Virus genome (UHGV): UHGV-0284389 | From: a virus | Direction: 5' to 3' (one strand) | DNA length: 10,812 nt | Shown: piece by piece, positions 1,650 to 6,546 of the stretch | Numbering within the stretch: position 1 is the first letter of the stretch | How the letters are laid out: each line of letters starts with the position of its first letter | Translations under genes and position numbers: made by a program | The notes under the pieces: generated by a model | What the model was told of the DNA's origin: nothing | Database searches by the model: none | What the model saw: the letters and a program-made list of their open reading frames with translations, nothing else

Positions 1650-2510
1650 TCACCTGTCGAAAAACACGTAGCCAGTTTTCGATACGGTGATTGCGGATGA
1701 TGGTTTGGATTGTGGTTGAATAGTTTCTGGCTTCTCGTCGTTCCAGCGTTGACCGTTCAGGTAGCTTGATGGTAACAACCTGTCGAATCCGAACTGCTTA
1801 CCATTCCTGCATGCGATGTCTTCTGCCAGCATCGTGGCAAACTCGCTTGCCGTACCCCTGGTAGTTTTACGCCATTCCCTGAACTGTGTTCTGAATGCCG
1901 AAGCTGCGTTTTTCTTCCCGGCTTTCCGCATGCCTGCACACCAGAATATTTCCTCGAATGCCTTGTCGGTTTCTTCGTGACGGTCAGATGATTTTTCACA
2001 CTCAGTCCGAACACTTTCGGACATAGTGTTTTTATTATTTCTTTTTTCTTTTGTAATAGTTTCTTTTGTGTGTCCCTGTTTTGGTGACAGCGCTGTCACC
2101 GTTTTGGTGACACTTTTTGTCACCAATGCAGTGACATTATCACCAGAGTAGTGACACCCTTCGATTTGCCATTCCTCGATGTTCTTGTTAGGCCCGATTT
2201 GCTGGCCTTCGCGAAGGATAACCTTCATCGCGATAAGCTCATTCTTGGCCTTGTTTACCTTCTGTCTTGGCAGCCTGGTAATTTGAGCTAACTGACTATC
2301 AGAGATGCGATCCATCTTTTTACCGTAGCCGTATGTTTTACGGCATATGGCGTGGGCAACCTTGCTCTGATTTTTCGTTAAATCTGCGCCGATAAGCTCT
2401 TCATACAGGGCATTTGCAAGACGGGTATAACCATCTTCAACTTCTGCCACACGACGCTCCACAGGCCGTTGTGAAGGCCTTAAATGTGTTACGGTTGCAA
2501 GATTACTCAT
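1650..2510 (-). CDS. phage replication initiator, lambda O-like (replisome organiser), with origin iterons embedded
   Basis: 286-aa ORF sitting between cII and the helicase gene, as O does in lambda. The N-terminal segment ([58 protein letters not shown]) resembles the O N-terminal DNA-binding domain; a repetitive VT-rich linker is encoded by the iterons; the C-terminal motif is [34 protein letters not shown] upstream. Confidence 0.7.
2028..2072. promoter_or_regulatory. AT-rich tract flanking the iterons (candidate DNA-unwinding element of ori)
   Basis: TTTTTATTATTTCTTTTTTCTTTTGTAATAGTTTCTTTTGTG lies immediately next to the iteron array inside the O-like gene. Confidence 0.5.
2083..2157. repeat. 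iteron array of a putative phage replication origin (inverted GGTGACA/TGTCACC half-sites at ~20-25 bp spacing)
   Basis: GGTGACA at 2083-2089 and 2106-2112; TGTCACC at 2094-2100 and 2118-2124; GTGACA at 2131-2136; ATCACC at 2139-2144; GTGACAC at 2151-2157. All lie inside the O-like coding region, as in lambda ori. Confidence 0.65.
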
Positions 2511-2649
2511 GACCTTTCTCCTTCTGCATCAGCTTCACTTTTTCCAACTCAGCCCGGAATCGACCAGGCTGCTTGAAGCTGGACAGGAAGCGATCACGTA
2601 GTATGTGTTTGTGAATTTTGTCCTGGTAAGGACTGAGTTGTTTTGTCAT
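2503..2649 (-). CDS. small basic hypothetical protein (48 aa) between cII and the O-like gene
   Basis: ATG at 2649-2647 with a strong RBS (AGGAG, 6 nt spacing); its stop overlaps the O-like start. Translation [48 protein letters not shown]. No recognised homology. Confidence 0.45.
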
Positions 2650-2654
2650 AATGA

Positions 2655-2726
2655 CTCCTGTGGATTGATCCAGTCTTTCTACATCAGGCCTCGAAGAATT
2701 CGCCGTTCTTCGGGGCTTTTTCTTTT
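2655..2726 (+). ncRNA. oop-like antisense RNA candidate, ending in a strong intrinsic terminator opposite the cII 3' end
   Basis: Plus-strand hairpin CCTCGAAGAA-(TTCGCCG)-TTCTTCGGGG (2689-2715) followed by CTTTTTCTTTT. A candidate -10 CATAAT at 2647-2652 lies upstream. Position and orientation mirror lambda oop RNA, which is antisense to the cII 3' end. The 5' end is a guess. Confidence 0.4.
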
Positions 2727-3081: not shown

Positions 3082-4410
<1,329 letters not shown>

Positions 4411-5317: not shown

Positions 5318-5788
5318 ATGACAAAATCATGGAGCGTACCTTTTCCTGAATCAGAAACTGAACATGATGGAATGCCTGTTTTCTGGAGATTCCAAGCGAC
5401 AGTTGAAGAAGGTGGAATCAAAATATTCGCACTTCAATATATAGCTTTTCATCAGACAGAGCATTATGCATGGTTGGTTCCTGCGCATTGGATTGTTAAT
5501 TTTAAACCAGCACCAAATCAGTGGTTACAGGAATGGAAACAAAGGAGAAATAGATATGCAATTAAGAAAGTAGCAAAAAATGCAGAAAGATCTTTTGCAT
5601 TCCCAACGAAGAAACTTGCCATTGAGAGTTTATTGCGCCGGAAGAAATACCATTTAATGAGAATCAAACAAGATTTGGCTGTTGTATCAACTCTTGTTGA
5701 TGGGATGAAGAATATTGATACATCAACACCAGATATTGAATATAACTTTGGACACAACCAAGAAACAGAAAATTGGGTATTTTATTAG
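5318..5788 (+). CDS. hypothetical protein (156 aa), low-GC moron in the PL operon
   Basis: Good RBS (GAGGTGA, ATG at 5318). By eye the GC content is well below the flanking genes. The C-terminal half is K/R-rich; no predicted TM segment. No homology recognised. Followed by its own intrinsic terminator at 5893-5918. Confidence 0.6.
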   Translation: MTKSWSVPFPESETEHDGMPVFWRFQATVEEGGIKIFALQYIAFHQTEHYAWLVPAHWIVNFKPAPNQWLQEWKQRRNRYAIKKVAKNAERSFAFPTKKLAIESLLRRKKYHLMRIKQDLAVVSTLVDGMKNIDTSTPDIEYNFGHNQETENWVFY

Positions 5789-6153: not shown

Positions 6154-6257
6154 GTTTTACAGATAACTGGTCAGACGAAGAATTCATTCGTCAGATGAAC
6201 AAAATGCTCAATCAGCACAAAGAACAGGAGAAAGATGATGATTCTGACTCTGAATGA
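6150..6257 (+). CDS. small acidic hypothetical protein (35 aa), overlapping the cIII stop (kil position)
   Basis: ATGA overlap with the cIII stop. Translation MSFTDNWSDEEFIRQMNKMLNQHKEQEKDDDSDSE. No homology recognised; may not be expressed. Confidence 0.3.
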   Translation: MSFTDNWSDEEFIRQMNKMLNQHKEQEKDDDSDSE

Positions 6258-6546
6258 TAAGCGTGAAATATCGCAAATAATCGCAAGTTTTACTGATGAA
6301 GATTACGAACGAATCAACAGTGAAGTTGATCGCCTCTGCAAACGTTGCGACCCAATAAGCGAAATGCTTCGCTCATATAAACCAGATGAACATACTAAGG
6401 ATGCTATCGACTGGCTGGAAGATGATGATTGTAACTATCAGGAAAAAGCCGCTGAATGGTTCTGGGATGCAATAACCGAAAGAGTTAAGGCTGAATATGC
6501 CTTCGCAATATTCAAACGCAGACACATTTTTGGAGAAGCTGCATGA
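6235..6546 (+). CDS. acidic hypothetical protein (103 aa) immediately upstream of recT (gam position)
   Basis: RBS AGGAG 6 nt upstream of the ATG; its stop overlaps the recT start (ATGA). MMILTLNDKREISQIIASFTDEDYERINSEVDRLCKRCDP... Not similar to lambda Gam by eye. Confidence 0.6.
   Translation: MMILTLNDKREISQIIASFTDEDYERINSEVDRLCKRCDPISEMLRSYKPDEHTKDAIDWLEDDDCNYQEKAAEWFWDAITERVKAEYAFAIFKRRHIFGEAA

Follow-up and report, generated by a model that had tools for sequence, protein, structure and literature searches.

A probable ori-lambda-like replication origin with iterons of its own inside the initiator gene of a lambdoid prophage

In phage lambda the replication origin lies inside the gene of its initiator, O, right behind the part that encodes the N-terminal domain, and contains four 19-bp iterons of dyad symmetry with half-sites TCCCTC/GAGGGA. 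Footprints of the O protein on these iterons have been described (PMC7466680), and the N-terminus of O binds ori while its C-terminus binds the P protein (PMC2629481, PMC7466680); the lambda mechanism is also treated in PMC8022706. Iterons specific to their class are likewise found inside the initiator genes of other lambdoid phages, namely P22 gene 18, HK97 O and phage L gene 18, and GenBank carries a rep_origin feature at this place in ES18 (AY736146) and P22. The Stx phages 933W and P27 have six-iteron origins with lambda-type half-sites, indicating that the number of iterons varies within one class. We examined a locus of this design in UHGV virus genome UHGV-0284389, of which the whole analysed stretch of 10,812 nucleotides is referred to here as the window.

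From its gene content and from Pfam/PHROG profile and DNA comparison, we assign the window to the early region of a lambdoid prophage. The cI-like repressor gene (3401-4033) and the genes for an N homologue, a cIII-like ORF, RecT, Gp157, Ea22 and DUF551 are on the plus strand, and the minus strand holds a cro-like HTH gene, a cII homologue (2684-2965), a 48-aa ORF of the DUF2740 type (2503-2649) and the O-like replication initiator gene (1650-2510). The last is intact and encodes 286 aa, with a match to Pfam Phage_rep_O (PF04492; aa 20-114, E = 1e-37) and one amino-acid difference from the O protein of phage mEp043 over those 286 aa; a stretch of 1,013 bp that includes the gene is 97% identical to mEp043, Sf101, SEN22 and vB_EcoP-720R6. 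Its N-terminal origin-binding domain (aa 1-118; 2157-2510, minus strand) is predicted to be a winged helix by an AF2 model, and its C-terminal domain (1650-2024, minus strand), presumed to recruit the replication partner, is of the ES18 type, being common to ES18 gp59, epsilon34 and g341c. Downstream, also on the minus strand, follow a 35-aa ORF homologous to ES18 gp60 and placed as that gene is (1539-1646; phrog_21848, E = 2e-28), and a truncated gene for a T7-gp4-like primase/helicase (140-1539; Toprim_2; phrog_239 primase/helicase). A consensus scan places a pR-like promoter, TTGACA-17-GAAAAT, between the cI-like and cro-like genes (3325-3353, minus strand), and it would drive cro-cII-O transcription across the origin. 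An Rfam search of the window returned no family match, so that the region is not explained by any known RNA family, an oop-like RNA included.

Directly behind the coding region of the O N-terminal domain we observe four 19-bp dyad-symmetric repeats of the form TGTCAC-N7-GTGACA, all recovered by both a repeat search and a pattern scan. Numbered in the direction of transcription and read on the minus strand, these are iteron 1, TGTCACTACTCTGGTGATA (2138-2156), iteron 2, TGTCACTGCATTGGTGACA (2118-2136), iteron 3, TGTCACCAAAACGGTGACA (2094-2112), and iteron 4, TGTCACCAAAACAGGGACA (2071-2089), the last of which has a degenerate right half-site, as does iteron 4 of lambda. Allowing up to two mismatches, the pattern TGTCACNNNNNNNGTGACA occurs five times in the 10.8-kb window, four of these in a cluster, against an expectation of 0.39, and five matches were reached in none of 200 dinucleotide shuffles. 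We treat the fifth match (1419-1437, two mismatches, in the primase gene) as chance, since it is isolated and has a poor right half-site. The iterons follow one another at 20, 24 and 23 bp in transcription order (23, 24 and 20 on the plus strand, as given by the repeat search), in line with the four inverted GGTGACA/TGTCACC units about 20-25 bp apart that the initial annotation had described, and it had also rightly set the array and the AT-rich tract inside an O-like gene. Upon examining the reading frame, we find that iterons 1 to 4 start in codon phases 0, 2, 2 and 1 and encode CH.., VT.., VT.. and LSP.., respectively; since the iterons are thus read in three reading frames, the repeat is a feature of the DNA and not of the peptide. 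The translation as a VT-rich linker, proposed in the same annotation, therefore holds for some half-sites and fails for others, given these phases. Two terminator-like matches, at 2082-2112 and 2005-2022, are the dyads of the iterons and of a palindrome caught by the hairpin scan and are not terminators. Identity of the dyads with LexA boxes or CRP sites was likewise rejected, as their spacing and sequence do not match the established consensus; that of CRP, TGTGA-N6-TCACA, differs from the TGTCAC-N7-GTGACA dyads in both respects.

Next to the array lies an A-rich, strand-asymmetric AT tract (2027-2070, minus strand), the presumed unwinding element, with 31 A among the 44 nt of its coding strand. 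It is the segment of lowest GC content and lowest stability in the window: 40-nt windows starting at 2023-2030 have 15% GC, the minimum of a sequence that is 45.5% GC overall, and the 46 bp from 2022 form its least stable duplex by nearest-neighbour energy (z = +3.5). The tract had been noted as following the repeat units, which is correct in the direction of transcription, since the gene is on the minus strand, and its extent is 44 bp. It opens with the junction CACAAAAGA (2062-2070), which is conserved in all classes compared and from which the iteron starts lie at -86, -66, -42 and -19.

Past the AT tract we detect a palindrome with 14-nt arms (1998-2029), made up of an inner stem, GTCCGAA-agtg-TTCGGAC, and an outer stem, ACACT/AGTGT. 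It is situated just beyond the interval delimited by the initial annotation and forms part of the same structure. Of the C-terminal module types that we compared, most have a short GC-rich inverted repeat of their own after the AT tract (GTCAGAG..CTCTGAC in lambda, CCCCC..GGGGG in P22 and HK97, GTCCGAA-agtg-TTCGGAC in the ES18 type), and a search for exact arms found no palindrome at this position in several module types. The variant GAGCGAA-gagg-TTCGCTC, found in the ES18 type and its relatives, has two inner-stem pairs altered on both sides, and one of these changes is a switch of serine codon from TCC to AGC that is matched in the partner codons. Across 11 sequences, 3 of the 12 pairs of the tested palindrome structure show double-sided changes, two of them in the inner stem, and pairing is 82.6%, compared with 13-45% when the partners are slid, figures that derive from few independent events. 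These observations lend modest support to the view that selection may act on the dyad of the palindrome. The outer stem showed no conservation beyond close relatives, and the claim is limited to the inner 7-bp stem.

When the locus is set beside the O genes of lambda, ES18, P22, HK97, Erwinia phage Midgardsormr38, Citrobacter phage Omnitron and Klebsiella phage RCIP0114, with two Erwinia phages compared for the position of the array, the same layout is seen each time. The iteron array begins a few codons past the conserved NKNIxEW at the end of the N-terminal domain, and it ends at the CACAAAAGA junction, after which comes an AT-rich tract. The half-sites are what differ: TCCCTC/GAGGGA in lambda and ES18, TTTACC/GGTAAA in P22, TTAGC/GCTAA in HK97 and RCIP0114, TGTTCC-type in Midgardsormr38 and Omnitron, and TGTCAC/GTGACA in the window. 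The likeness to lambda is close. The initiators are homologous, with N-terminal domains (aa 1-116) that are 53% identical (51% for P22 gp18); both origins lie inside the initiator gene right behind that domain; lambda too has four 19-bp dyad iterons, of which the first three stand at equivalent offsets from the junction, again 20 and 24 bp apart; iterons 3 and 4 have nearly the same CAAAAC core, the first 33 bp or so of the AT tract are nearly identical, and a palindrome lies past that tract in both. All the sequence features of a lambdoid origin, namely an O homologue, a dyad array, an AT tract and an inverted repeat, are thus present, and the assertion that the locus has the lambda ori architecture with different iterons is borne out, with the same place, junction and spacing and a half-site unlike that of every other class.

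The differences from lambda concern specificity and partner. The window has TGTCAC/GTGACA half-sites and the helix motif LPRQKVN, in contrast to TCCCTC/GAGGGA and LPVKRCN in lambda, and so falls outside the lambda specificity group, which is defined by those half-sites and a lambda-type helix. The C-terminal domain of lambda O is unrelated to that of the window, which has no P and instead encodes the gp4-like primase/helicase downstream, so that it is not a lambda O-P replicon, with its lambda-type O C-terminus and downstream P, either. P22 and HK97 differ as well, with other half-sites, another C-terminal domain and a DnaB-like helicase as partner. What the window does contain is a module of the ES18 type, that is, the O C-terminal half with its palindrome, the small ORF and the primase/helicase, the latter truncated by an insertion sequence (IS). 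The DNA is about 90% identical to ES18 from the AT tract on, and positions 1540-2083 share about 90-96% identity with ES18, epsilon34 and g341c. ES18 itself combines this module with a lambda-type N-terminal domain and lambda-type iterons, whereas the window combines it with the TGTCAC cassette.

We therefore read positions 1998-2156 as the probable replication origin of the lambdoid prophage, an ori-lambda-like element inside the initiator gene that would carry a specificity cassette of its own, and we give this reading a probability of about 85%. The mechanism is drawn by analogy. As in lambda, dimers of the O-like protein would bind the four 19-bp iterons through the N-terminal winged helix, with the PRQKVN helix reading the half-site; the resulting O-some, a nucleoprotein complex, would destabilise the A-rich tract with the help of transcription from pR (PMC7466680), and the C-terminal domain of O would bring in the replicative helicase. 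The partner would most likely be the phage's gp4-like primase/helicase together with the 35-aa protein, rather than lambda P and host DnaB, and recruitment of a gp4-like helicase would free initiation from P and DnaB. A stronger version may be put forward only tentatively, and as a whole we consider it rather doubtful: the PRQKVN/TGTCAC pair would be fully orthogonal to lambda O/ori-lambda in spite of an identical array geometry, the gp4-like primase/helicase would be recruited directly without lambda P, DnaB, DnaC or DnaG, and the module-specific palindrome would be the helicase entry signal.

Next, we investigated the N-terminal domain of the initiator. A search of the PDB by sequence found no solved homologue of this domain, and a single-sequence AlphaFold prediction was unusable (pLDDT 48.6), so we used an AF2 model built with a 30-sequence alignment, which reaches pLDDT 80-95 over residues 41-118 with a mean of 73 and is unreliable over residues 1-40. 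The model predicts a winged helix with helices at 46-58, 71-78 and 82-94 and a beta-hairpin wing at 98-107, and the best Foldseek matches in the PDB are winged-helix domains of the CRP and MarR types, at a weak E value of about 2e-3. Given the third helix at 82-94, L80-PRQKVN86 is predicted to cover the turn together with the opening turns of helix 3, the helix that usually serves in recognition. Residues L80-PRQKVN86 do not vary among the 57 unique N-terminal sequences of this class, PRQKVN is kept even by a member that is 49% identical, and among the matches listed the TGTCAC half-site occurs always with L/I-PRQKVN wherever the motif is readable (about 110 loci from viral and bacterial collections). 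The corresponding motifs of the other classes are LPVKRCN in lambda and ES18, MAPTKCS in P22, IHHTHVC in HK97 and RCIP0114, and ISRSKAN in Midgardsormr38 and Omnitron; HK97 and RCIP0114 have both iterons and helix motif in common, as do Midgardsormr38 and Omnitron. This pattern fits a PRQKVN helix that would read the TGTCAC/GTGACA half-site, the correlation being one within clades. Shared descent accounts for part of this co-occurrence of motif and half-site, the cassette being a single clade.

To describe the occurrence of the class, we scanned IMG/VR with the iteron pattern and obtained at least 120 loci. In 90 of the 120 matches listed, the array comes right after a homologue of the O N-terminal domain that is 49-100% identical; most of these loci have four iterons and some five or six, so that iteron number varies within the TGTCAC class as it does in the Stx phages. 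Nearly all IMG/VR loci among the matches listed keep 20/24/23 as their last three intervals, the exceptions being two Arsenophonus loci and one other (L110) with 29 in place of 20, and truncated or divergent loci such as L067, L080 and L089. The comparison of iterons across homologous prophages, which had been suggested at the outset, shows that the half-site positions of 63 unique arrays among the matches listed are conserved to 90% or more, with the spacers of iterons 1-2 and the bases between iterons being variable. A stricter scan restricted to one genome per species gave 27 matches, and in 19 of these an O homologue was present, always with LPRQKVN; the array lies directly behind it in 18 of the 19, and the exception is a Klebsiella plasmid. 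The genera include Xenorhabdus, Enterobacter, Serratia, Arsenophonus, Tatumella, Erwinia, Pantoea, Rahnella, Providencia, Trabulsiella, Photorhabdus and Shimwellia. In E. coli, positions 2030-2230 of the window are matched at 90% identity or more in 175 of 5,426 complete genomes (about 3%).

The N-terminal domain and iterons are 99.6-100% identical in phages mEp043, Sf101, SEN22, vB_EcoP-720R6 and PhiR12_1 to PhiR12_5. By this identity, the putative origin of all these phages is the same, as a whole module in the first four and as the cassette in PhiR12_1 to PhiR12_5. The mEp043 record has CDS annotation only in this region and no rep_origin feature, the other matching phage records give only CDS product names under the match, and the Sf101 paper contains no discussion of an origin. 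A full-text search of the available papers for the iteron string yielded none that describes these iterons. The element is a common, previously unannotated variant of the textbook design and not a new kind of element.

Upon partitioning the class by what follows the cassette, we observe several different combinations. From the start of O to about 2038, PhiR12_1 matches the window with 100% identity and then continues with the lambda C-terminus, lambda P and ren, and ES18 is the reciprocal chimera, with the lambda N-terminus and iterons followed by the window-type C-terminus, small ORF and primase/helicase. Alignment with PhiR12_1, ES18 and lambda puts the module crossover at about 2038-2045, within the AT tract, the left part of which matches lambda and PhiR12 and the right part ES18. 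Among the matches listed, 30 of the 90 IMG/VR loci join the cassette to an ES18-type C-terminus (primase/helicase seen in 25), 17 join it to a P22-type C-terminus (14 with a DnaB-like helicase, and the helicase alone in one more), and nine to a lambda C-terminus (eight with lambda P, and lambda P alone in four more), with other or unassigned partners at the remaining 29 loci of this kind. An ES18-, P22- or lambda-type C-terminus beside a different partner gene was seen at none of these 90 listed loci. The chimeras and this co-occurrence indicate that exchange involves two units, the N-terminal domain with its iterons and the C-terminal domain with its helicase partner. In these alignments the AT tract shows cleanly as the apparent recombination joint between specificity cassettes and three helicase modules. 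The distinct initiator-iteron specificity postulated by the initial annotation is likewise supported at the level of sequence, by a half-site of its own, an invariant L/I-PRQKVN, and an N-terminal domain and iterons that swap together.

Whether this copy is active at present is a separate matter. The element may be an origin by descent that no longer functions here, the prophage being defective and its iterons and AT tract a recent relic; this disputes present activity only, and we give it somewhat less than an even chance. The primase/helicase gene is interrupted by an IS3-family insertion sequence (ISEc52-like), whose end occupies positions 1-139: these are 100% identical to IS3-family transposase loci, with thousands of such copies in E. 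coli, and all phage homologues begin to match at about 133-136. The homology to the 626-aa primase/helicase of mEp043 (mEp043_055, the homologue compared) and ES18 ends after residue 466, at FIIDSL, which leaves 160 aa of the helicase domain missing; the truncated ORF ends in IS sequence and covers positions 11-479 of 801 in the phrog_239 profile. With the primase/helicase truncated in this way, the origin is probably silent unless the helicase is complemented in trans. Against a relic, O is intact and one amino acid from mEp043 O, the missing helicase could come from a co-resident prophage, and the remainder of the prophage lies outside the window. The 99.6-100% identity of the iteron region to the isolated phages mEp043, Sf101 and vB_EcoP-720R6 further suggests that the insertion is probably recent.

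The repeats might also bind O and yet serve mainly as regulatory or titration sites, for copy control, exclusion of related phages or as a transcription roadblock. The extra iterons (five or six) in some members of the class would suit such a role, but the array adjoins the least stable DNA of the window and a palindrome, which is the layout of the lambda origin, and titration would supplement an origin function rather than replace it, so we regard this as very improbable. A still smaller chance is left to the idea that the repeats are a by-product of a V-T peptide linker between the two domains of O, with no role as DNA. The repeats do lie within coding sequence, parts of them translate as VT.K..VT, and GNVT coding repeats built from these DNA words occur in three unrelated contigs; however, the different codon phases give different peptides, the DNA half-sites are conserved where the encoded linker varies, the geometry is that of the lambda iterons footprinted with O (PMC7466680), and a peptide repeat would have no need of the internal dyad symmetry that each unit possesses. 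Least probable of all, we find, is that the dyads are operators of some other dimeric regulator, the prophage repressor/Cro or a CRP-like host protein, since, although dyad symmetry and a size of 19 bp are typical of operators and CRP-family proteins give the best fold matches to the O domain, the half-site tracks the recognition-helix motif of O, an operator would be expected between cI and cro at around 3300-3400, and immunity region and O cassette assort independently (HK633 and several E. coli prophages match the window from 2640 or 3040 on without the O region, and mEp043 has its O in common with the window and a different repressor).

With the locus read as a probable lambdoid origin, the textbook picture is unchanged, and the result will not surprise a specialist. 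The origin can now be marked in phages like mEp043, Sf101 and SEN22 and in about 3% of complete E. coli genomes, in which the gene is labelled only as a replication protein. Overall, a well-populated specificity class is added to the lambdoid initiator/iteron series, which now comprises five classes with a shared geometry and differing pairs of half-site and helix. Because the geometry is the same and the pairs differ, these five classes offer natural material for deciphering how the O winged helix recognises DNA, and the series is also useful for building orthogonal replicons of the lambda type.

Within the TGTCAC class, in which an O N-terminal domain carrying the L/I-PRQKVN motif is paired with TGTCAC/GTGACA half-sites, we found five- and six-iteron versions in L113, L029, L104, L150 and their relatives, with the extra iterons on the side distal to the AT tract, a parallel to the six-iteron version of the lambda class in Stx phages. 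Beyond the AT tract, the palindrome at 1998-2029 shows compensatory changes among related modules (GTCCGAA/TTCGGAC versus GAGCGAA/TTCGCTC), including a serine codon switch from TCC to AGC, and most C-terminal/helicase module types have a palindrome of their own at this spot. A lone iteron-like site, TGTCACCGTTGACGTTACC, with two mismatches, lies at 1419-1437 within the primase/helicase gene and is probably a chance occurrence.

Dense arrays of TGTCACC..GGTGACA-like dyads were also observed in the IMG/VR contigs L030, L040, L048/L085, L073, L078, L121 and L015, in which tblastn detected no homologue of the window's O N-terminal domain; other initiator families may have adopted a similar half-site, with these arrays serving as their origins or operators. 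Locus L140, from the Klebsiella sp. plasmid NZ_CP170105.1, encodes a homologue of the O N-terminal domain that contains LPRQKVN and has no iteron array behind it. The array matches are placed at another point of this locus, which suggests that its O gene is interrupted or rearranged.

A strong hairpin of 14 pairs followed by a T-run (2686-2718, plus strand) is antisense to the cII 3' end, the position of the lambda oop terminator, and had no match in Rfam. PHROGs and RefSeq call the 48-aa DUF2740/orf48-type ORF overlapping the O start (2503-2649, minus strand) a 'tail protein'; since the position of this ORF between cII and O is conserved, the label is evidently wrong. Three plus-strand ORFs (3958-4410, 5318-5788 and 6235-6546) have no Pfam match and fall only in PHROG families of unknown function. 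The first is directly downstream of the cI-like repressor; in lambdoid phages, accessory or exclusion genes are often located just downstream of the repressor.

Finally, the T7-gp4-like primase/helicase gene (140-1539) is broken after residue 466 of 626 by an IS3-family (ISEc52-like) element, whose end occupies 1-139, and because of this interruption the replication module of the prophage is probably defective.
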